Positions 5,812-51,039 of a stretch of DNA of 51,540 nt are shown here, piece after piece. Within the stretch, counting starts at the first letter, position 1. Every line of letters starts with the position of its first letter. The position numbers and the translations under genes are program-made. The stretch lies in IMG/VR virus record IMGVR_UViG_3300032203_000014, positions 1 through 51,540 of that record; one strand, 5' to 3'. The stretch is from a virus. Its lineage: Duplodnaviria; Caudoviricetes. A model generated the notes under the pieces. The model saw nothing but the letters and a program-made list of their open reading frames with translations, had not been told where the DNA came from and did not search any database.

Positions 5812-6300
5812 ATGCGTGATCTTGATGCCAATGAGGTGAAAGCCCTTATTGAACGCGGCCGCCGCAGCCATTCCAAGTTGGGCGTAGCTGGAGCTTTTGG
5901 CACAGCCCGCCTGGGCAAGAACATCAGTTCTTCCCAAAACGATATGCTGGCAGTGCTGATGATTATTGGTGAGGGTATTGCCTTCGCTGATCCGGAAGCG
6001 CATAACGGTGTGGATGGGTATGCTGGCCTGGCAGTAGCCCTACAGAGCGCTGCGGACTTCTACCGCCACTTCTCTGAAATGCACAAAGCCGATGGCTTGG
6101 CGCCCTATCAGACGGCCTATAACACTCTGCCGGCCCATCTTTATGACATCGTGGCGCTTGACGGCGCCAGGGCCCAGCGCTTGAGCGAGCTGACCCGCCC
6201 TATCGGCTTGATTCTGGGCCAAACCCTCAACCTTAACCACCGCGTGCGTAAACTGGAGAAAAGCGATGAACCCGCATCCCAATCAGAAACCTCGGTTTGA
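5812..6300 (+). CDS. Hypothetical protein
   Basis: AGGAG RBS; 162 aa. Confidence 0.6.
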   Translation: MRDLDANEVKALIERGRRSHSKLGVAGAFGTARLGKNISSSQNDMLAVLMIIGEGIAFADPEAHNGVDGYAGLAVALQSAADFYRHFSEMHKADGLAPYQTAYNTLPAHLYDIVALDGARAQRLSELTRPIGLILGQTLNLNHRVRKLEKSDEPASQSETSV

Positions 6301-6907
6301 GGCCCTTCCCATGCAAGACGACTCTTTCAACTCCGGCCAGGAGGTGAAGAATTTGGCGGCCCAGTCCAAAAAGAATCTGGCACGCGAGATTATCCGTCTC
6401 CGCGGGCTGCTGAAGGCCTTTAATGGCACGCTGCAGGGGCAGGTCTCGGCGGCTGTCTCCAACCAGTTCCAGCACCGTGAAGCCTTCGCCCTGATGGCAT
6501 ATGTCCAGCGTGGCGTGCCTGAAGGTGAAGCGGCCGAAGTGATCCACATCTGGAACTCCCGTGATGGCGTGACGCCCTTCGTGGTCCACATCGGCGCCAA
6601 GTCCTACGAGCACGACATCATGGCCATGAGTCGCCCCCACTTCGATCTGCCTGCAACGGCAACTCATAAGTGGGAAACCCGGACCGAAGCCAAGATGATG
6701 GAAGCTTTCGGCCGCACCCTGGACCTGGCGGTCAAGCTCGGCCGCATCGAAAAGGATAAGGCGGAGAATATCCGGGGCAATGCCGAGGTGGCAGCATCCT
6801 GGAACTACCGCATTGGCCTGCGCGACCTGTCGACCGGCAATTACACCGATGAAGACCAGCTGCGTGACCCCGGGCCCAAAGTGACGGAGGCAGCTGCCAA
6901 TGCGTAA
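6266..6907 (+). CDS. Hypothetical protein
   Basis: GGAG RBS; 213 aa; phage-like codon usage; overlaps both neighbours. Confidence 0.65.
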   Translation: MNPHPNQKPRFEALPMQDDSFNSGQEVKNLAAQSKKNLAREIIRLRGLLKAFNGTLQGQVSAAVSNQFQHREAFALMAYVQRGVPEGEAAEVIHIWNSRDGVTPFVVHIGAKSYEHDIMAMSRPHFDLPATATHKWETRTEAKMMEAFGRTLDLAVKLGRIEKDKAENIRGNAEVAASWNYRIGLRDLSTGNYTDEDQLRDPGPKVTEAAANA

Positions 6908-7262
6908 GCCTTCCATCCGCTTTGTCGGCGGCGATGACAAGCACGGGCAGGTCTTTGTGGTGGAGACCCATGCACCGGCAGGCTATGAGCTGGACTCCCA
7001 CGTGCACAAGCATGCCCATACCTCCGTTTTGGTAGCAGGCAAAGCAGAAGTGATCGTGGCCGGTATCAGCCGCGTTTATGAGGGGTACAACCTCATTACG
7101 ATCCCGGCCCATACGACACACACCGTCAAGGCACTCACCGACATCACGTGGCTCTGCCTCTGGGCAGGCGACCTGGCACCAAAGGAGGAGGCGGAAGCCT
7201 CTCTCAAGCTGTCCTCGGGCAGCGCATGTGATAGTTGCCCTGGTGGTTGTACCAAGGGCTGA
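6900..7262 (+). CDS. Cupin-fold protein
   Basis: Cupin motifs SHVHKHAHTSVLVAG and IPAHTTH; C-terminal CxxCxxxC. Confidence 0.7.
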   Translation: MRKPSIRFVGGDDKHGQVFVVETHAPAGYELDSHVHKHAHTSVLVAGKAEVIVAGISRVYEGYNLITIPAHTTHTVKALTDITWLCLWAGDLAPKEEAEASLKLSSGSACDSCPGGCTKG

Positions 7263-7293
7263 TTTACCAACCAATCTCTTGAAGGAGAGAACA

Positions 7294-7839
7294 ATGTCCC
7301 AAGTATTGAAAGCACTGCCTTACGCCGTCATGGTGTCCAATCTGTTCAAGCGTGGCTCCAACCAGGTTGAAGAGCTGATGCATGCTGCCATCGGTCTGTC
7401 TGGTGAAGCAGCCGAGTTTGCCGAGGCTGATGGGCTGCAAAACGCCATCGAGGAACTGGGTGACCTGGAATTCTACGCGGAAGCCTTCCGTCAGAAGCTG
7501 GGCATCAGCGAAGAGGAGGTTGTGCTTGCTCGCATGGCCCAATCTGCGACTGAAGCCAAAGTCACGCTGGGCACCATGATCCATCACCTGTCTGTCGTTA
7601 CTGGCGACATTCTGGACCACACCAAGAAATGCTGGGTCTACGGCCACCAACCGGAATCGGCCACCTTCGTGGAGCTGTTCGGCCGCTTCGAGGGCATTAC
7701 CCTGCAAGTCCGTGACATCCTGGGTGTCAACCGGCAGGTAATCCTGGATGCCAACCAGGCCAAGCTGGGCAAGCGTTTCCCCGAGGGTGTTTATTCCGGG
7801 GCAGACGCATTGGCTCGTGCTGACAAGGCCAATGGTTGA
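7294..7839 (+). CDS. MazG-like nucleotide pyrophosphohydrolase
   Basis: HAAIGLSGEAAE...EELGDLEFY and C-terminal NQAKLGKRFPEG motifs; start moved to the ATG after GAAGGAG. Confidence 0.8.
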   Translation: MSQVLKALPYAVMVSNLFKRGSNQVEELMHAAIGLSGEAAEFAEADGLQNAIEELGDLEFYAEAFRQKLGISEEEVVLARMAQSATEAKVTLGTMIHHLSVVTGDILDHTKKCWVYGHQPESATFVELFGRFEGITLQVRDILGVNRQVILDANQAKLGKRFPEGVYSGADALARADKANG

Positions 7840-16140: not shown

Positions 16141-17160
16141 ATGGAGTCCAGCATCATGACCGTACAATTTGCCCAAGTCTATTTTGTGCGCGGCGAAATG
16201 CCAAGCAGCCAGCGTACCCGATTCGAAGTAAAAGACCCGCCTACCGCGGGTTGGGGCCACGTTGCCATTATCCCCGGTCCCAAGCGATCGACCCTGTTGA
16301 GCCCGTTCTCGTTGGAAGCTTGGCAGGTCAGCAACACCTGCGACGAGCTGAAGTCCGCCAAGTATGTGGACGTGGCCCCTGAGCGCCTCGCCCACTTCAT
16401 CAATGAAGCATGGGAGCAATGCGTCAGACTTGGCTTCCAGCGAGACTTTGGTGTGGCAGCTATGATTCTCTTCGAGCTCGGCCAGCCGCAGTTCCTACCA
16501 CCACCTCCAAGCGAGCGCCATGGAGAAGAGGACAAAACCCGCGGCGGCAAGCCCGTGGCCGAAGACAGTCTCAAGCCCTGCAATCCTGACAGCAAGCGCG
16601 CAGCAGTGGCCCGCTTCTTTATGGTGGAAGAGCCTCAGTCCCTGCACGAGGCGATGGCCAAGCTGGGCCTCACCCGCTCGGGCGTTCTGTCCCACCTATT
16701 CACTCTCAACAAAGACCACGGCGTGGGGTATGAGCTAGTCCGCGATTGCGCCCGCCTCATCGTGCCCGAGGGCTTCGATCTGTTTGATTGGGTTGCTCCT
16801 GTCAAAGCCGAAAAGCCTGCGCCCGTCAATTCTGACGGCTCTCCAAAAGAGCCTCCCAAGAAGCGTACCAGTGGAAAGCCCATTGTGGAGGAAAGGCTGA
16901 AGCCCATTCCCGAGCCCGGTAAGCGCGCTCAAATTGCCCGCATCTTCCTAGACTGGGCCCCAATAGCTCAGGGGCAAGAAGCCCTCGACATCGACCGCTC
17001 CGCCGTACTGTCCCACCTCTTCACCATCAATAAAGAGAATGGGCTAGGCTACGAGCTGTCCGAGGACTCGACTCAGGCGAGGCTGCTGATACCCGATGGG
17101 CATGAGATGTTCTGTGCCAAGCAGCCGAGGACCAAGAAGGCTGCTCCTGCCTCGGAGTGA
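16141..17160 (+). CDS. Protein with two tandem winged-HTH-like repeats (putative transcription regulator)
   Basis: Duplicated ~85-aa unit containing RSGVLSHLFTLNKDHGVGYEL / RSAVLSHLFTINKENGLGYEL; the true start may be the second Met. Confidence 0.7.
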   Translation: MESSIMTVQFAQVYFVRGEMPSSQRTRFEVKDPPTAGWGHVAIIPGPKRSTLLSPFSLEAWQVSNTCDELKSAKYVDVAPERLAHFINEAWEQCVRLGFQRDFGVAAMILFELGQPQFLPPPPSERHGEEDKTRGGKPVAEDSLKPCNPDSKRAAVARFFMVEEPQSLHEAMAKLGLTRSGVLSHLFTLNKDHGVGYELVRDCARLIVPEGFDLFDWVAPVKAEKPAPVNSDGSPKEPPKKRTSGKPIVEERLKPIPEPGKRAQIARIFLDWAPIAQGQEALDIDRSAVLSHLFTINKENGLGYELSEDSTQARLLIPDGHEMFCAKQPRTKKAAPASE

Positions 17161-17475: not shown

Positions 17476-18234
17476 ATGACTTCCTCCCATATCAATAACG
17501 CCTTTGTCGCTGCCTTTGTCGCCCGCCTCTTGGCCGGCGCCGATAAGTTCAATCGTGAGGTGATCGACCTGCCCATCCCGGAAACGCCCAAGCTGTTGTC
17601 CACGCAGCGTGGCAAGTTCGCCATCGGCGCCCTGCAAGAAGAATTGACTGAGTTCTCCGAGGCCCTAGTTGACAAGGACATCCTCGAGGCCAGTGACGCA
17701 TTGATTGACCTTATCTACTTCGCCATCGGCCGTCTTGTTGAAATGGGCGTGCCGGCCGGCTTGGTGTTTGATGAAGTACAGCGGGCCAACATGGACAAAG
17801 AGCGGGGTGAACTGTCCAAGCGCGCCAACTCTCTGGGCTATGACGCCGTGAAGCCCAAAGGCTGGAAGGCTCCTGACCATTCGGCTCTACTGACCTTCGA
17901 CAAGAGCGCGGTGGAACGTGCGGCTCAGTTTGAAGCCATGTCCCCCATCCTTAAGAAGGCCGTTGCTCTACGTGCCAAGAAAGGCAATGACTACAACTCA
18001 GGTCCGACACTGCACGACTACTTCCCCTTTGGGCACCTGTCTTATGCACAGATGCTCCATGTGAAGATGCTCCGCATCCATTCACTGCTGGCCGTTATCG
18101 CCAAGGGTGGCAAGCCGAATTTCGAGGGCATCAGTGATACCCTAGAAGACCTTATCAACTATATTTCCTTCTATGCTGAAGCCATTGCTGATGGTTCAGC
18201 CGATCAACCCACCTACGGAGCTATTGCAAAATGA
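17476..18234 (+). CDS. Fusion of a MazG/dUTPase-like pyrophosphohydrolase and a DUF1599 (Nmad1)-like domain
   Basis: N-terminal QEELTEF...DALIDLIYFAIG...EVQRANMDK...KPKGWKAPD; C-terminal KKGNDYN...KMLRI...EGISDTLEDLINY. Confidence 0.8.
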   Translation: MTSSHINNAFVAAFVARLLAGADKFNREVIDLPIPETPKLLSTQRGKFAIGALQEELTEFSEALVDKDILEASDALIDLIYFAIGRLVEMGVPAGLVFDEVQRANMDKERGELSKRANSLGYDAVKPKGWKAPDHSALLTFDKSAVERAAQFEAMSPILKKAVALRAKKGNDYNSGPTLHDYFPFGHLSYAQMLHVKMLRIHSLLAVIAKGGKPNFEGISDTLEDLINYISFYAEAIADGSADQPTYGAIAK

Positions 18235-19109
18235 GCAGAATCAGCTTACCCTTCTATGACATTTATGGCGCCTTGATGTCATGGATTATCACCTCTGGCG
18301 TGGAAGAGAAGAACGTCAGGACCGGCCACCGTGTGAAGGTTGGGCGCGGGGGCACGTCCTTCCGCCTCGACTTGGCAGATGGCCTACTTCCCACGGCAGG
18401 CTTCCGCAAGCTCTTCCCCAAGAGCGCTGCTGCCGAAGTCGCATGGTTCCTTATGGGCACCCAGGATGCCACATTCATCCGCAAGTATGCTCCTTTGTGG
18501 GATAAGTTCGTGGAGCTTGTGGACATCAAGGGTGGCAAATGCCGGGAAGACCGGGTTGTCGAGGGTATCAAGGCGGCCTACGGCTATCGCTGGCGCACCC
18601 ACTTCGGCCGGGACCAGCTGATTGACGCAGTAAACGCGCTGTCAGCTGATCCGTCTGATCGCCGTTGTGTCGTCGTGGCCTGGGACCCAGCAGAAGACGG
18701 CTGCGGAGCCGAGGGGCAGAAGAACGTGCCATGCCCCATGGCCTATACCCTGTCAGTCACCAATGGCGAGCTGCATTCCAGCTTGTTCATCCGGTCCTCA
18801 GACGTCTTCGTCGGTCTGCCCTATGATGTCATGGGCCATGCTTTGCTGATGGACGCTATCGCGGCCTCTCTGCGGGTGAAGCGTGGCGTGATGCACATCA
18901 CCCTGGCTCATCCTCACCTCTATGAGGATCATTGGGAGATGGCTGCAGAGAGCCTTCGCCAGGAGCCCGTTGTGCCAAAGCTCCAGCTGCCCGGCTTCAA
19001 CCTGCGGCAGATCATCCGCGCCCCTGATGACTATGTGGAGCGTGTTGCCGCCGAAGCCAAGACAGTTGAATGGCCTGCCTTCAACCCCAAGCCTTTTATT
19101 GTGGAGTAA
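18231..19109 (+). CDS. Thymidylate synthase-family enzyme with dCMP-type active site (candidate dCMP methylase/hydroxymethylase)
   Basis: AYGYRWR, DQL, SDRR, catalytic PC (Cys168), RSSD..VGLPYD (Asp199), H.HLYEDH. Confidence 0.9.
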   Translation: MSRISLPFYDIYGALMSWIITSGVEEKNVRTGHRVKVGRGGTSFRLDLADGLLPTAGFRKLFPKSAAAEVAWFLMGTQDATFIRKYAPLWDKFVELVDIKGGKCREDRVVEGIKAAYGYRWRTHFGRDQLIDAVNALSADPSDRRCVVVAWDPAEDGCGAEGQKNVPCPMAYTLSVTNGELHSSLFIRSSDVFVGLPYDVMGHALLMDAIAASLRVKRGVMHITLAHPHLYEDHWEMAAESLRQEPVVPKLQLPGFNLRQIIRAPDDYVERVAAEAKTVEWPAFNPKPFIVE

Positions 19110-19112
19110 GCA

Positions 19113-19604
19113 ATGACTGAAGCCCCGATACGCCGGTCCCAAGCTGAATGGGACGCTTTCTTCCTGGACTTTGCAGATAAAGTCGCCGCCCTGTCCAAGG
19201 ACCTGGACCGGCAGGTCGGGGCCGTCCTGGTATCCCAAGACAAGCGGCAACTGTCCATCGGCTATAATGGGTTCCCACCTGAAGTCGATGACTTGCCCTC
19301 TTTGCTGGCAGACAAGCAGTTCAAGCTGGCCAATATGGTGCATGCCGAGGAGAACTGCCTGCAGCAAACTCCTTTCAATCCAGCAAGCTGCACCATGTAC
19401 GTCACCAGGTTCCCTTGCCATCATTGTGCCGAAAAGATCATCAATGCAGGAGTCCGCCGTGTGGTATCTCCGGGGCCCGACCTCGGCCACGCGCGGTGGG
19501 GCTCGTCTTGGCAGACCTCTCTCAACAACTTCCGCCGCTTCTCGGTAGAAGTCACCTTTGTCGACGTCGTAGACCTCGATCAACTGGAGTTACCTTTAGC
19601 ATGA
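19113..19604 (+). CDS. dCMP deaminase (ComEB/T4 Cd-like)
   Basis: SKD..QVGAV, GYNGFP, HAEEN and PCHHC zinc motifs. Confidence 0.9.
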   Translation: MTEAPIRRSQAEWDAFFLDFADKVAALSKDLDRQVGAVLVSQDKRQLSIGYNGFPPEVDDLPSLLADKQFKLANMVHAEENCLQQTPFNPASCTMYVTRFPCHHCAEKIINAGVRRVVSPGPDLGHARWGSSWQTSLNNFRRFSVEVTFVDVVDLDQLELPLA

Positions 19605-20068
19605 AGAAACTCAACCTACTCATGGCTGTCTCCTTTGACGGCTTTGCGGCACGCGGGCCCGAGGACAATATGAACTGGACGGGCTACGAGGATAAGGCCC
19701 TGTTCAAAGCCCTCACCATGTCTTCACCTCACCCGCTGCTGGTAGGACGTCGGACCTTCGAGCAGATGCCCAAGCTCGAAGGGCGTGAACTGGTGCCGAT
19801 CAGCCGCAATCCTGAGCTCGGCATGTCTCTCGAGCGGGCGGCGGAGCTGTATCCCGGCGCCTGGCTTATCGGAGGCATGGAGGTCGCCCGAGCAGCGCTG
19901 CAGGCCGGCCTGGTCGGCTTGGTCTATCAGTCTCGTGTACCGGCCAAGCTGAAAGAAGGCATCCCTTGGCGGCCTCTGGAAAAGTTCCTGCAGAAGCAGA
20001 CCAAAACCGACTTCTGGATTGATACCGGCGTGCATGTGCGGGTCCATGGGGTGAATCGTGGCTCGTGA
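19601..20068 (+). CDS. folA: Dihydrofolate reductase
   Basis: MAVSFDG...MNW...DKALFKALT...VGRRTFEQMP.L.GR...IGG; ATGA overlap with the deaminase. Confidence 0.8.
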   Translation: MKKLNLLMAVSFDGFAARGPEDNMNWTGYEDKALFKALTMSSPHPLLVGRRTFEQMPKLEGRELVPISRNPELGMSLERAAELYPGAWLIGGMEVARAALQAGLVGLVYQSRVPAKLKEGIPWRPLEKFLQKQTKTDFWIDTGVHVRVHGVNRGS

Positions 20069-42705: not shown

Positions 42706-42773
42706 GGCGTAGTGTATAAAGGTCGAGACTGGCTTGCCGGTCTTGGCCCATTTCAATGTTCACAGGAGGTCTT

Positions 42774-43262
42774 ATGACCAAGACTCCAATAGAGAAGTTT
42801 ACCCTATTCTATGGTGGGGTGTTCAGCCAATGGTATGCCTGCGACCTCGTCATTGACGGGGAGACCTACAATTGCGCGGAGCAGTACATGATGGCTCAGA
42901 AGGCTCGATTGTTCGGAGATCATACTATGCTGGACTGCATCATGGCCACTAATGACCCGAGCGCGCAGAAGGCTTTCGGCAAGAAGGTCCAAGGCTTCCA
43001 AGTCGAGGTATGGGAAGCGGTTGCCCGCGATATTGTCATGCGTGCCAACTTGGCGAAGTTCACGGACAGCCCGAAGCTGCGGGCCAAGCTGCTGATGACT
43101 GAGGGCACAACCCTCGTGGAGGCAAGTCCTACCGATCGGATATGGGGCATTGGCTTGTACGAGAATGACCCTCGAGTCCATTTCCGTAACCAGTGGCAGG
43201 GCCGTAATTGGCTTGGGCAGGTGCTGACTGACCTGCGCGAACACCTGCAGGTTATCCACTAG
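42774..43262 (+). CDS. NADAR (YbiA/DUF1768) family protein, putative ADP-ribosyl-guanine hydrolase
   Basis: FSQWY, AEQYMMAQKARLFGD, P..QKAFGKKV, N.AKF, LVEASPTDRIWGIG, GRNWLGQVL; AGGAGG RBS. Confidence 0.92.
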   Translation: MTKTPIEKFTLFYGGVFSQWYACDLVIDGETYNCAEQYMMAQKARLFGDHTMLDCIMATNDPSAQKAFGKKVQGFQVEVWEAVARDIVMRANLAKFTDSPKLRAKLLMTEGTTLVEASPTDRIWGIGLYENDPRVHFRNQWQGRNWLGQVLTDLREHLQVIH

Positions 43263-44480: not shown

Positions 44481-47400
44481 TTAAACCTCTGTCACTGTGA
44501 TGATATATTTCCCGCCTTCGTTTTTCACTTCGTCGATGCGGAACCTGGTACCGGGCATAAACAAGACCTCCCGCTCTCCCTGGTATTTAGAATACTGGGA
44601 GACGTTCACACCAGTCTTGCCGTTAACCCGCATATACACGTTGCCAGAGAAGGCTGCCTGCTCGTCATAGGAAGTCGAGACAAAGGCGGAGTCTTCAATG
44701 ACCGCGCCTTTCCTGTACGTGGCGAGGACCTTCTTCAGCTCTTCTTGCCCGAAGCTCATGCCGCGCGAAGAGATGCCTTGATACTTCGGCATCTTGGCAA
44801 GACCATGCTGGGCGGCCTCTACATAGGCCTGCAGTGCGGTGTCTCCCGCATACTTCCCATCACGTAAGGCGTTGTTTAGCTGCTTATACGCACTGCCAGT
44901 GTAAGTCGTAATGGCCGATGCCTCTACCTCTGTTAGCTCAGGCAGGTTGAGCCTACGCTGGCTGGCGTTGATCGAGTCGAAGACCAAGGTAGGAATGCGG
45001 CCCGAGTATTTACGGATGCCAGCTTCGCGCTGGGCGTCTGTAAACCTTGGGGGCGGAGGAATCCCTTCCCGCGGAGTAGCGGCAGGCCGAGCAGGCGTCA
45101 AGTCAACCTCGGCAGCCGAAGCTGGTGGCGGGGCCGTCACAGAGGGCTTAGGCGCCACGGCCGCTTGTGACGGGCCTCCCTTCTTCAGCTCGTACGCCGC
45201 AGCCTCTTTCAGCTTGACCTTGGCCGAGGCTGACGGCTCATATCCTGCCAGCTGCTTCACCAGCTTGTTGGTCTTGACAGGACCAAAGCCGGCTGCTTGG
45301 GCCTTCTTATAGGCCTCCAGAGCAGCTTTACCCTTGGCATCGAGGCCTGCCATATACTTCTCGATCGTCGGGCTGGCAGTGAACCCCTGGGGAGCCTTAA
45401 AGGCCGCATTCAAGTAAGGCTTGCTCGCCGCCTTGGATGTGGCGAGCTGGTATTGCGCCAGTTCCAGCAAGTCGGTTGCGCCAGGCTCTTTAAGGGAGCC
45501 AAAGACCGCCTTCATGGCGTCGAAGGCATCGGCAGGTGTTCCGCCTGCCGCTAGTACCGACTTCACCTTGTCCAGGGCTTTTGCCGAGGTGCTGCCCAGG
45601 GTAGTGCCTGCCAGCTTTGGTGGCGATACGGGGCCAGAGGTTGCGGCCTTTACCGTCGCGCTCTCTGCCAGCCCAGTTGCTTTGGCAAAACCTGCAGGGT
45701 CGGCCTTCTTCCACAGGCTCTTCCATGTAGCGACCTTGCCCATGTTCAAGTCTGCGGCATTGAGCGGGTACTGTTTTGCCAGTGACTCGATAACTGCCTT
45801 GCTATCCAGCACGCCCTGTGCCATCAGCTCCAAGCCCTTTGCTTTCAGCTCAGACTGCCCAAGCTTGAGAGGCGATGGCGCTGCAGCCACTTCAGCCGGT
45901 GCCGCGACAGCCGCCTGCGGAGTGACCGGTGTGGGGACCACATCAGGAATCACCTTGGCATTGACAACAGGGGTGGCCGCCTTATTGGGTAGCAGGCCGT
46001 CCTTCTTGAGCTGACTCTTATAGCTCTGAATGGAGGCCAGTTTGGTCTTGGCCTGCGGGAACTCTGCTAGTACCGAGTCCAGGACCTGGGCATCAGGCAT
46101 CCCTTGCTGTAGCAGGGCTTTTGCCAGGCTTCCGACTGTCGTGTGCTTGCCAGCTACCTCAAAGGGCAAAGCGGGGCCACCGGGCAAAGCTGGCTTGGCA
46201 TTGACAGAAGGAATGGGGAACTTGTCCGCCATAGCCTTCTTGGCCGCCTCGATGGCTGGAGCAAAGACCTTGTTGAACTCCATGGCGCTCAGGCCTTGAG
46301 ACGTCAGAGCGCTCGGGCTTAATGCCTGGGCGTAGACCTCTGCCACGAGCTCATCAGCACTGCTCAGATAGTACGAGTAGAGCTTACGAGCGTCTGGCGT
46401 CATGGCCTTCGCCGAAGCCTTCAGGCTTGCCAGAACCTGGTCCGGCAATAGGAGGTCGTGCTGCTTGTGAAGCAGGTGGCCGAGCTCGTGCGCCGCGACC
46501 TGTTGGGCTTGAGCAGCAGGTATGGCGGACAACTTGGAGCCACTCAGCATCACCCCTTTGCCGGCCTGATAGTACCCATAAGCGCCCGGCGAGCCATCAA
46601 GGGAATCTACGACGGTAGACCATTGCCCACTAATAGCATGTTTGACATTGGCTGGCAGGGAAGCGTCCAGATTGTCCACGACATCGGCCACGGTTTTGGC
46701 TTGCTTCAGGGCTCCTGCCGGAACCTTGAACTCGGGCGCGATATTAAGGGCGCCTGCCTTGTTCAGCTCGGACTTGTAGGAAGCGATCGACGCCGCCGAA
46801 GTGCTCGCATCGGGGAACTCAGCTTTGGTCTGCTCCAGCACCTCACTTGAAGAGAAACCCTGCTGAAGCAGGGACTTGGCTTTCAAACCTACGCCTGGCT
46901 GGATGACGTTCAGCTTGTCTCCAGCCACCTCGGCTTGAAGCTGCTGGAGTGAGTATGGTTTACCCCGCTCGTCGACGAACTTATCGAGGGGCATGCCTTT
47001 GCGGAACAGTTCAGCCTTGCCCTTGCCCAGCACTTCATCCTGGAATGAGGAAGACTGGCCCTTCAGCCAGGTCTGGTAGTTCATAGAGGAGGGAGCCTGC
47101 CCAATATTCTCGGCTGTCCACTTATCACGCGCTTTCTTTATCGCGGCATTCCGCTCAGACACGCTCATCTTCTTCCATGCCACATCGCCCGCATCAGCTT
47201 TGGCATTGGCCCTGAAGTCGACCTCTCGCTGTGCACGCGTACGAGTATCCGTCACATAGGGGCGATCGCCAACAATCTCCTCGCCTTTAAGCACCGGGAC
47301 CACCGTGGAGCGGCAGTTGGGATGGGCTGGAGGGCGCGGCCCCTTGTCGATAGGGTAGACACAGCCGTCCCGCGATTGGCACACGGGAGAAGTGCGGCCG

Positions 47401-48071
47401 TCCAGGGTAGCTACCCAGCGCACACCTTCGATGATGTCTGCGTTGGCATCCCAGGTTGCCTGCCGAGCTGCGTTGGATACGTGGTTGGCAGTCGTGCGGG
47501 CGATCATTTCAGCTTCCCGCTTAGTGATGTCCAGCACCCCATCCTTGTAGTTATTGGCCTTGGTGCCGCGAATACGCCTCACCAACTGGTCATTAGTCTC
47601 TCCAGCCAGGATGCCAAGACGCATCTGCTGCTCGATGCGGGTGACATCATTCACCACCATCTTGCCTAGCCAACCAGACAGGGGGACGCCTGTGACGGGA
47701 GACCCGGCCACCGCCTTGAGTACCGAGACAGGTACCGTATTCAGAGACAGAGCGACAGGGGAAGCACCCGAGATGGCTGCGAGCTCCCACTCAGCCTCGG
47801 TCTTTGCCAGGCCTTCCATATCGGAATTCAGGGAGTCATTGATCTTGGCCACCATACCTTCACGGAGCCGCTGCACTTCAGCCATCAGGCTGCGCAAGCG
47901 GGCTTCCGTTGCTTCGGTCAGGTCTGCCACTTGTAGCTTAGCCAGTAACTCAGCATTGGATGCTGCAAGCAGGTCTGCCGCTGCCTGAGCTTCTCCCTGG
48001 GAGAAGCGCAGCAGCTTGATTTGATGCCTTATGGTGGCATCAAGCAATTCTTCGTTGGCCGTCTTCGCCAT
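44481..48071 (-). CDS. MuF (SPP1 gp7-like) minor head protein fused to helical repeats, a HExxH metallopeptidase-like region and a C-terminal VIP2-like ADP-ribosyltransferase
   Basis: MuF motifs WVATLDGRTSPVCQSRDG and PPAHPNCRS; AAHELGH...ELVAE; ART motifs YTGSAYKQLNNALR, SSRG, FVSTS, EREVLF.PGTRF. Confidence 0.9.
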   Translation of the reverse strand: MAKTANEELLDATIRHQIKLLRFSQGEAQAAADLLAASNAELLAKLQVADLTEATEARLRSLMAEVQRLREGMVAKINDSLNSDMEGLAKTEAEWELAAISGASPVALSLNTVPVSVLKAVAGSPVTGVPLSGWLGKMVVNDVTRIEQQMRLGILAGETNDQLVRRIRGTKANNYKDGVLDITKREAEMIARTTANHVSNAARQATWDANADIIEGVRWVATLDGRTSPVCQSRDGCVYPIDKGPRPPAHPNCRSTVVPVLKGEEIVGDRPYVTDTRTRAQREVDFRANAKADAGDVAWKKMSVSERNAAIKKARDKWTAENIGQAPSSMNYQTWLKGQSSSFQDEVLGKGKAELFRKGMPLDKFVDERGKPYSLQQLQAEVAGDKLNVIQPGVGLKAKSLLQQGFSSSEVLEQTKAEFPDASTSAASIASYKSELNKAGALNIAPEFKVPAGALKQAKTVADVVDNLDASLPANVKHAISGQWSTVVDSLDGSPGAYGYYQAGKGVMLSGSKLSAIPAAQAQQVAAHELGHLLHKQHDLLLPDQVLASLKASAKAMTPDARKLYSYYLSSADELVAEVYAQALSPSALTSQGLSAMEFNKVFAPAIEAAKKAMADKFPIPSVNAKPALPGGPALPFEVAGKHTTVGSLAKALLQQGMPDAQVLDSVLAEFPQAKTKLASIQSYKSQLKKDGLLPNKAATPVVNAKVIPDVVPTPVTPQAAVAAPAEVAAAPSPLKLGQSELKAKGLELMAQGVLDSKAVIESLAKQYPLNAADLNMGKVATWKSLWKKADPAGFAKATGLAESATVKAATSGPVSPPKLAGTTLGSTSAKALDKVKSVLAAGGTPADAFDAMKAVFGSLKEPGATDLLELAQYQLATSKAASKPYLNAAFKAPQGFTASPTIEKYMAGLDAKGKAALEAYKKAQAAGFGPVKTNKLVKQLAGYEPSASAKVKLKEAAAYELKKGGPSQAAVAPKPSVTAPPPASAAEVDLTPARPAATPREGIPPPPRFTDAQREAGIRKYSGRIPTLVFDSINASQRRLNLPELTEVEASAITTYTGSAYKQLNNALRDGKYAGDTALQAYVEAAQHGLAKMPKYQGISSRGMSFGQEELKKVLATYRKGAVIEDSAFVSTSYDEQAAFSGNVYMRVNGKTGVNVSQYSKYQGEREVLFMPGTRFRIDEVKNEGGKYIITVTEV

Positions 48072-49649: not shown

Positions 49650-50078
49650 TTAGACTGCCAAGCTTATCGGGATAAGCCAAGTAACCCAGAAGAATCCATC
49701 ATTGCAAGGCCCAATGATGCCCGCGTCGTCCATGCTTGGGTCCCACTCGATTCGGCCACCGCGTCCGACGACAGTATGATTGACGCCTGTGGCAGATGTC
49801 CCTCCGAGTAGACAGCGGGCATGGGGATTCAGATGCCCTTGCATGGCGAGTAGCTGTTCCAGGGTGCAGTCATAGACAACCTCAACGGGCATCAACCCTT
49901 GAGAGTTGAGATACTGCTCGGCGGCTTTGCTGAAGGCCGGGCCATCATTCCAATGCTTCTCACCAAAGTGCGGGACTTGCTCAGGCTCCAGGTCAAGTAG
50001 GCGGGCAATCGCCGTGCGATGGCAATCACCTATGCTGCCCTGGTCCGGGAGATGGTAGAGCTGTTTGTTGTACTTCAT
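49650..50078 (-). CDS. Hypothetical protein
   Basis: GDCHRTAIA.LLDL...VPHF...NHTVV...WDP; ATGA overlap with the ligase stop. Confidence 0.7.
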   Translation of the reverse strand: MKYNKQLYHLPDQGSIGDCHRTAIARLLDLEPEQVPHFGEKHWNDGPAFSKAAEQYLNSQGLMPVEVVYDCTLEQLLAMQGHLNPHARCLLGGTSATGVNHTVVGRGGRIEWDPSMDDAGIIGPCNDGFFWVTWLIPISLAV

Positions 50079-50972
50079 AGGTCACCTGCCATGCGCTCGC
50101 CCAAGAAGACTGGAAAGCGGGGGGCATCCTTGGAGCCAATGGGGAAGAACTTGTACTTGACCACCTTGCCAAGCCATGCCTCACGAGCCAGCCAGATGAG
50201 GCGGCGTGTAGCAGCGTCGAAGCCGGTGCCAATGTTGAACTCTACACCTGCGAATGGTCCATTGAGACCGCGCACCTTCAGGGCGCCCAGTGTATCCATG
50301 CCAACCATTCCAGCCTTCGAGTGGCCGCGCTCGGTCTGCCCGAGCAGTCCAACTGTTGCCTCGTTGGCATTGTGCATCAGCTCTTCAAAGCCGATGACAA
50401 TCGCCTCTGCGTCCTCAAAGCGCTTCAGCTTGAGAAGGTCCTGCTTGGTGACTGTGCCGCGGCCGAACTTATAGGGCGAGGCATAATGGCGCAGCATCAC
50501 ACCCTCAAAGCCATTGGCAAGCTGCTCGGCCTCATAGGCGTCTAGCTCCATCATCGTGGTAATCATTTCCTGCTCGACGATCAAGCTGCGCCCTGAGCCG
50601 GTCACCAAGTCACGAGCACGTCTCAGGCGACTGTGGTAGGGCTCATTGGGCTCGCGGCAGCAGTCGAATACATGGAACATGGAACATGGCGTCAGGGTCT
50701 CCCTCGATGGACATGACTCCAGAGGAGGTCTGGCGGAAGGCATCCTTGGCTGTAGGGTCTCCAACAATCAGCTCTCCATCCAAGCCATTCAGGAAGTTCT
50801 TCCCAAAGATGGCTTGGATGCGGCGGTTGGGAATAGGCTTGAGATTACGGGACACCACAACGCCATCAATCACGATGGCCCGTATGCCGTCCAGTTTAGG
50901 GCTTCCGAGTAGAGGCAGGCGAAGCTTCTCGAGGTCGGCTGTGCCTGCCAGCATTGGCTTGAATTGGCTCAT
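50075..50972 (-). pseudogene. lig: ATP-dependent DNA ligase disrupted by a 7-bp duplication (or an assembly error)
   Basis: Motifs I (SPKLDGIR) and III (LDGEL) lie in ORF 50643-50972; FHVFD, EGVMLR, LLKLK and PRFPVF lie in ORF 50075-50767; removing one CATGGAA at 50671-50684 gives a single 891-bp ORF. Confidence 0.85.
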
Positions 50973-51039
50973 TCTTCAATCTCCTTAGTTGCATAGGGCG
51001 CCGAGTGGGCGCCCATTAAGGGATATATTAGAGTGGAAG

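Follow-up and report, generated by a model that had tools for sequence, protein, structure and literature searches.

The DNA of Xanthomonas phage Xp12 contains 100% 5-methylcytosine (5mC) in place of cytosine, as listed from LC-MS in Table 1 of the accessible part of PMC7653180. Kuo and Tu 1976 is cited in PMC8543423 and PMC11946847, as is Kuo et al. 1982 ('A new thymidylate biosynthesis'); a citation of Wang and Ehrlich 1982 was also found. PMC12088426 reports the Xp12 deaminase as specific for 5m-dCTP. According to the available portion of bioRxiv 2024.12.05.627091, the Xp12 thymidylate synthase (TS) homologue made 5mdC in E. coli together with T4 gp1 kinase, five of the seven Asp-type TS tested made 5mdC while two gave none, and phage PaMx74 is stated to be fully 5mC. 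The same portion shows that deaminase mSCD-B5 acted on 99% of 5m-dCTP versus 4% of dCTP, with no detectable activity on dCMP or 5m-dCMP; its authors propose conversion of 5m-dCTP to dTTP, bypassing a dUMP-type TS. Selectivity for 5mC was polyphyletic there, occurring in 34 of the 56 active deaminases. In the text available from PMC8670742, TS positions 177 and 147 were the top two separating modified from unmodified contigs.

Here we analyzed a window of 51,540 nucleotides carrying a block that, by sequence comparison, is an orthologue of the Xp12 5mC cassette, and thus belongs to a system already known. The cassette is one more member of a pathway known since 1976–1982, whose cloned genes were tested in 2024; what is new is a lead on the nucleotide kinase that this pathway lacks.

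Results

An Xp12-type cassette in a Mallos-like phage

The window is the whole of a linear virus record that is 84% complete, so about 16% of the genome is absent. The phage is Bradleyvirinae-like and near Xanthomonas phage Mallos (ON189047, Bradleyvirinae, Mallosvirus), to which 88% of the window aligns at ~80% nucleotide identity and whose cassette proteins are 70–90% identical to those of the window. The window TS is 87–89% identical to that of Mallos and 84% to that of Variovorax phage V45iii, followed by other Bradleyvirinae, including Xp12 at about 64–65%; identity to the PaMx74 TS is 69%. No base analysis of Mallos was found in the literature searched.

The tightly packed MazG-Nmad1, TS, deaminase and DHFR block proposed in the preliminary description was recovered with its coordinates and coupling intact (Table 1); the first two genes overlap by 4 nt, as do the last two, and 3 nt separate the TS gene from the deaminase gene. 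Pfam assigned the four ORFs to PRA-PH (MazG-like), Thymidylat_synt, dCMP_cyt_deam_1 and DHFR_1. Promoters and terminators in the window were at chance level (3 versus 1.8 and 7 versus 5.5, respectively).

Table 1. Features of the cassette and of the second MazG-like gene in the window
Feature	Position	Strand	Details
MazG-like NTP pyrophosphatase + Nmad1/DUF1599 fusion	17476..18234	+	252 aa
MazG-like part; Nmad1/DUF1599 helical domain	in 17476..18234	+	aa ~25-142; aa ~150-240
Nmad1 domain	17917..18210	+	candidate non-P-loop 5m-dCMP kinase, from gene-slot exchange alone
dCMP methyltransferase (putative), TS homologue	18231..19109	+	292 aa; C168, P169, D191, D199
Zn-dependent deoxycytidylate-family deaminase	19113..19604	+	163 aa; H77-A-E79, C102xxC105, W129
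Dihydrofolate reductase (DHFR)	19601..20068	+	155 aa from ATG; DHFR_1
Second MazG-like protein, outside the block	7297..7839	+	phrog_229

We aligned the window TS with E. coli ThyA and T4 gp42, using reference sequences from annotated records. C146/C148 of these proteins corresponds to C168 (TGC at 18732), H147/T149 to P169, D169/D171 to D191 and N177/D179 to D199 (GAT at 18825), with 31 residues separating Cys168 from Asp199; the earlier placement of Cys168, Pro169 and Asp199 at ThyA C146, H147 and N177 was therefore correct. The DHFR matches DHFR_1 (E 4e-7) and phrog_13578 (E 8e-41) and is 45% identical to the Xp12 gene product. The MazG-Nmad1 protein is 53% identical to its Xp12 orthologue, and the best PDB match of its MazG domain is DR2231 (profile E 3e-15; by fold, Z 11.2, rmsd 5.9 over 130 aligned residues), the closest solved MazG relative, crystallized with dUMP and dUMPNPP. 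For the second MazG, a longer ORF (7078-7839) matches phrog_229 MazG-like at E 5e-24; this gene is present in Mallos, V45iii and PaMx74 and was not detected in Xp12 by tblastn.

We consider it highly probable that the block works as its Xp12 orthologue does, converting dCMP to 5-methyl-dCMP, so that the genome carries 5mC for C, with thymidine derived from 5m-dCTP deamination. In the proposed scheme, the TS homologue would methylate dCMP with methylene-THF, as demonstrated for the Xp12 orthologue, and DHFR would recycle the dihydrofolate, a role in keeping with an AXL1 relative that behaves as a working DHFR. The 5m-dCMP would then be raised to 5m-dCTP, the first phosphorylation possibly being carried out by the Nmad1 domain (the weakest step), and a family-A polymerase would incorporate the product. 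The deaminase would turn part of the 5m-dCTP into dTTP, as reported for Xp12 and demonstrated for mSCD-B5, and because of this conversion a dUMP-type TS would not be needed. Finally, MazG may remove dCTP and/or dUTP, its candidate substrates. Such a substitution would likely serve escape from restriction enzymes.

Thymidine is probably made at the triphosphate level

The preliminary description had offered two models: (a) a 5mC-substituted genome and (b) thymidylate synthesis in the order dCMP, 5m-dCMP, dTMP. Each is in print, but they do not stand as alternatives, since Xp12 shows both a fully 5mC genome and 5m-dCTP deamination; the two are thus known and coexist. The monophosphate route of model (b), moreover, is probably set at the wrong level because mSCD-B5 acts at the triphosphate, and on 5m-dCMP no activity was detectable.

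The window deaminase adjoins the Asp-type TS, has an intact zinc site (HAEE at 77, PCHHC at 101), is 58–59% identical to the Xp12 deaminase and groups with it in a tree, with support of only 81/93. Its W129 aligns with Xp12 W128 but is not diagnostic, since the YuA, PaMx11 and KL1 deaminases carry it too. We regard action on 5m-dCTP as likely. Among the other readings the best survivor, though still an unlikely one, leaves the TS product and the 5mC genome unchanged and has the deaminase act on 5m-dCMP to give dTMP, or serve as an unselective dCMP/dCTP deaminase. It would fit the Pfam assignment as a dCMP deaminase, the best PDB match (deoxycytidylate deaminase 2w4l), the varying selectivity across this family and the finding that six basic Xp12 residues (K33, R75, R83, R109, R120 and K130) have no basic counterpart in the window.

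GC-only palindromes and the proposed fate of 5m-dCTP

We then considered whether the cassette might serve thymidine supply alone, running from dCMP through a 5m-dC to a dT nucleotide while the genome keeps ordinary cytosine. The preliminary description had noted that no dNMP kinase was visible in the window and had taken this as mildly favoring model (b); searches of this 84%-complete record indeed found none. That step does not hold, because the fully substituted Xp12 is also without a recognizable kinase, as are the complete Mallos and PaMx74 genomes, and because triphosphate-level deamination requires a kinase too. Such deamination would, in addition, put 5m-dCTP into the nucleotide pool regardless.

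The palindrome pattern also resembles that of 5mC phages. For GC-only 6-bp palindromes, the window had 172 observed against 183 expected, a ratio of 0.94, and the corresponding ratios were 0.96 for Xp12, 0.91 for PaMx74 (38 kb of genome) and 0.89 for Mallos. Five hand-picked phages, whose hosts differ, served as controls, and these do avoid such palindromes: PaMx11 (0.02) and YuA (0.58), which we take to be thymine-modifying relatives of the same family, and PA73 (0.37), KL1 (0.35) and Xp10 (0.74), presumably phages with unmodified DNA. The slight palindrome avoidance in the window fits protected cytosines. This signal is supportive but not specific, since over all C-containing 6-mers summed the control Xp10 (0.85) and the window (0.87) are alike; counts of 4-mer palindromes did not split the phage groups. 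On these grounds we judge a role in thymidine supply alone to be very improbable, and keep to a cassette that would feed 5m-dCTP both to the polymerase and to the deaminase.

Chemistry of the TS homologue

The dCMP-methylase assignment of the preliminary description appears right, the TS of the Xp12 orthologue having made 5mdC in E. coli. Of the 12 ThyA residues near dUMP C5 listed in the available section of PMC13326640, 11 are the same in the window and Xp12 TS, the exception (I187 versus L189) being conservative. Both TS fall within a single 14-row clade (SH-aLRT 96).

A somewhat fainter possibility than thymidine supply alone is that the enzyme is a dCMP hydroxymethylase or hydroxylase, with 5hmC or 5hoC in the genome. 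Asp at position 177 is common to all dCMP-acting homologues, and E161 fell in the MAFFT column of L143. However, that column lies at a gap introduced by MAFFT at ThyA 142-143, for which reason we counted both positions back from the Cys. By this count, the residue three before the Cys is N165 (its MAFFT column is ambiguous at the gap), an Asn as in Xp12 and invariant in an eight-sequence alignment, and the acid at ThyA 143 that marks T4-type hydroxymethylases is absent from the window TS. The D169N signature of hydroxylases or 5-hydroxy-dCMP synthases (RB69/DLP3 type) is likewise absent, since D169 is retained as D191. Identity to T4 gp42 is 19% versus 65% to Xp12, no sugar transferase was found, and the adjoining DHFR is required solely for reductive methylation. 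Among the ORFs scanned, no glycosyltransferase, carbamoyltransferase or TET had a match.

It is hardly credible that the protein is an ordinary TS acting on dUMP, alongside a dCMP deaminase and DHFR. Many GenBank records still annotate such genes in this way, PMC9206674 so describes those of AXL1, and the best PDB sequence matches are ordinary TS. But D199 and P169 stand in place of the canonical Asn177 and His147, Asp177 occurs in the window protein as in all 126 related loci, and the same paper reports that of 31 restriction enzymes only 5 cut AXL1 DNA. No second TS was found in the record.

The Nmad1 domain as a candidate 5-methyl-dCMP kinase

A kinase acting on 5m-dCMP, induced by Xp12 and absent from uninfected cells, was reportedly described in 1982. 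We searched for a dNMP kinase gene in the record (84% complete) and in those of Xp12, Mallos and PaMx74, which are complete, and found none; one scan covered 50 ORFs drawn from Xp12 and Mallos. A GxxxxGK[ST] scan of the window, Xp12 and Mallos likewise returned no kinase but was rejected as evidence, as this pattern cannot match a GKD-type kinase. The PF21448 profile missed the positive control in Rhodobacter phage RcRudolph, which makes it weak evidence of absence, and a custom profile was therefore used in its place.

RcRudolph joins the equivalent MazG domain to a P-loop domain, with no Nmad1 there, and 31 of 31 aligned members of this P-loop slot domain match PHROG 139, deoxynucleoside monophosphate kinase. 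We analyzed the slot between MazG and TS in 126 TS(Asp) loci, not deduplicated. Besides RcRudolph and JWX, the set took in 44 viral contigs and the best 80 of 112 metagenome matches; D169 and D177 were present in all 126. The slot held Nmad1 in 48 loci, a P-loop dNMP kinase in 45, and a DUF6378-like domain in 7; the other 26 loci lacked all three, and two of the three were together in 0 of 126. Among the 26, four had PF18909 in the slot, 10 had fewer than 200 bases upstream and 12 had nothing recognized. When the loci, with the window and Xp12 added, were clustered at 95% TS identity, 103 clusters resulted, of which 41 had the kinase, 38 Nmad1, 4 DUF6378 and 20 no label. In a quick tree built from the 83 labeled clusters, the slot label changed 7 times (minimum 2), and strongly supported branches forced at least three changes for the kinase and at least four for Nmad1.

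We also analyzed whole records, hand-picked from longer contigs and named phages, several of them only 52–71% complete. The kinase profile matched 7 of 30, all with the kinase in the slot, and 0 of 19 Nmad1-cassette records, while the Nmad1 profile matched 20 of 32 and none of the seven kinase records. A PF18909 profile matched 0 of 25 records but also none of its controls, so that its absence shows little. Exclusion between Nmad1 and kinase inside the fusion is partly positional.

Nmad domains were reportedly defined by Iyer et al. in 2013. The call of a MazG-Nmad1 fusion in the preliminary description fails by Pfam cut-off in the window protein itself, where PF07659 (DUF1599) reached E 0.09–0.16, but stands through homologues and fold. 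Of 81 aligned homologues (picked among 120 matches listed), 15 matched the profile at E<=0.01, and the domain has an Atlas match at 0.94. Its AlphaFold model (pLDDT 89.9) found the Nmad protein of Serratia phage Muldoon by Foldseek (E 2e-5, TM 0.78), many further viral Nmad1 models being in the top 50; DUF6378 models matched more weakly. Against the PDB, the fold gave generic helical hairpins at best (no E<=0.001, best Z 7.1), MazG rows being weak (E>2), and the Nmad1 profile had no significant match to four DUF6378-like sequences. Ten polar positions (K169, D172, Y173, K197, R200, D221, D225, N228, Y229 and E235) show no departure from the majority residue across all 80 homologue rows, as would be expected of an active site.

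From this gene-slot exchange, we suggest that Nmad1 fused to MazG is a candidate 5-methyl-dCMP kinase of Xp12-type phages, all-helical and non-P-loop, a proposal that we hold tentatively, at a little below even chances. The same degree of caution applies to its component that Nmad1 has been swapped repeatedly with the P-loop dNMP kinase, DUF6378 and PF18909 in a single slot. For a small non-P-loop kinase, T7 gp1.7 may offer a precedent by analogy: YuA and PaMx11 show a weak match to DUF3310 next to the TS genes they carry, and PMC10700055 connects DUF3310 with the nucleotide kinase T7 gp1.7. Nmad1 compared with the gp1.7 family gave no significant match (hhalign probability 0.5%), the gp1.7 alignment being shallow.

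Contrary to this lead, the Nmad1 gene of Muldoon adjoins its dCMP hydroxymethylase, and Muldoon also carries a T4-type dNMP kinase (E 2e-72). Since the slot occupant PF18909 is named after a diphosphohydrolase, the helical slot domains could instead be second pyrophosphatases, with host kinases phosphorylating the nucleotide. Other kinase candidates are conserved hypothetical genes, such as those at 6266-6907 and 16141-17160. Our literature search, which covered few subscription journals, found no kinase role assigned to Nmad1, and one may already be published. If Nmad1 is indeed the 5m-dCMP kinase, a gene still missing from a classic pathway would be named, with a new kinase fold in a 10-kDa domain; the Xp12 pathway would be complete within the operon, and a function would follow for several widespread viral domains that now have none assigned.

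Comparison with known systems

T4 gp42 shares with the window TS the catalytic Cys and the cytosine-selecting Asp at equal spacing, but differs in its 19% identity, in having an acid rather than Asn three residues before the Cys and in its product. RcRudolph and the RDJL-type roseophages share the gene order, with MazG-X, TS(Asp), deaminase and DHFR, but X is a P-loop dNMP kinase there and Nmad1 in the window. In the neighborhoods of mSCD-B5 and of the MetaGPA set, as described in the available parts of bioRxiv 2024.12.05.627091 and PMC8670742, an Asp-type TS has a PF00383 deaminase and a PRA-PH gene for neighbors, as here, and H147 and N177 are both altered, as in the window. The window deaminase is another candidate for 5mC-selective sequencing enzymes. 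As for AXL1, its DHFR was able to raise trimethoprim resistance, according to the excerpt of PMC9206674. PaMx74 has the cassette gene order of the window. Finally, Xp12 (MT664984) carries QNN97215 (hydrolase), QNN97214 (TS/dCMP methyltransferase), QNN97213 (deaminase) and QNN97212 (DHFR) in identical order, at 53, 65, 59 and 45% identity to the window's MazG-Nmad1, TS, deaminase and DHFR. Ribonucleotide reductase genes, and a gene for an HhH-GPD glycosylase immediately upstream, are seen in Xp12 and not in the window, the second MazG occurs in the window and was not detected in Xp12, and GC content is 56.5% in the window versus 68.2% in Xp12; the two phages share the MazG-Nmad1 fusion, with no recognizable kinase in either.

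A fourth domain in the kinase slot and Asp-type TS relatives on large contigs

We examined the position between MazG and the thymidylate synthase homologue (TS), the kinase slot, whose other occupants are a P-loop dNMP kinase, Nmad1 and DUF6378. At four loci (L086, L088, L112 and L125), PF18909 (dGTP_diPhyd_N) lies immediately 5' of TS, in three of them as a fusion with MazG, and is a fourth kind of domain filling this slot. Nmad1 also occurs as a stand-alone gene in Serratia phage Muldoon, a T4-like phage whose genome also encodes a gp1-type kinase. Asp-type TS relatives (51–55% identical) were further found on four contigs (L077, L079, L080 and L132), the shortest measuring 177 kb and the longest 1.86 Mb; no deaminase, DHFR or MazG match was detected at ≤5 kb from these TS genes, which may encode cellular dCMP methylases.

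Features of the window and of related phages
Feature	Location	Strand	Remarks
Second MazG-like gene	window 7297-7839	+	common to Mallos, V45iii and PaMx74
DHFR	window 19601-20068	+	
NADAR-domain gene	window 42756-43262	+	Pfam E 4e-49
MuF minor head protein, 1196 aa	window 44481-48071	-	C-terminal ADP-ribosyltransferase domain; Pfam E 1e-15
DNA ligase gene, in two parts	window 50075-50990	-	frame change near 50,680
HhH-GPD glycosylase gene, Xp12	L001:16329-16811		immediately 5' of MazG fusion
Stand-alone Nmad1 gene, Muldoon	L146:4836-5300		directly 5' of dCMP hydroxymethylase

Accessory genes compared with those of Xp12 and other phages

The ligase frame change falls within a short 7-base tandem repeat, and represents either an assembly error or a genuine break; the Mallos ligase is intact, and each window part is 87–90% identical to it. 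Overall, the window has a GC content of 56.5%, compared with 68.2% for Xp12 and 61.8% for Mallos; it falls below Mallos despite ~80% nucleotide identity between the two.

The NADAR gene, on the strand opposite to that of the structural genes, is kept in Xp12 and Mallos. The MuF–ADP-ribosyltransferase protein, whose Xp12 orthologue is 71% identical, is likely an enzyme carried in by the virion to target the bacterial host. The second MazG-like gene had no detectable counterpart in Xp12, and no HhH-GPD glycosylase gene was found in the window; in Xp12, this glycosylase could repair T:G mismatches arising by 5mC deamination. Finally, the window DHFR falls in the same clade as the AXL1 and DLP4 phage enzymes, for which one study reports higher trimethoprim resistance (PMC9206674).
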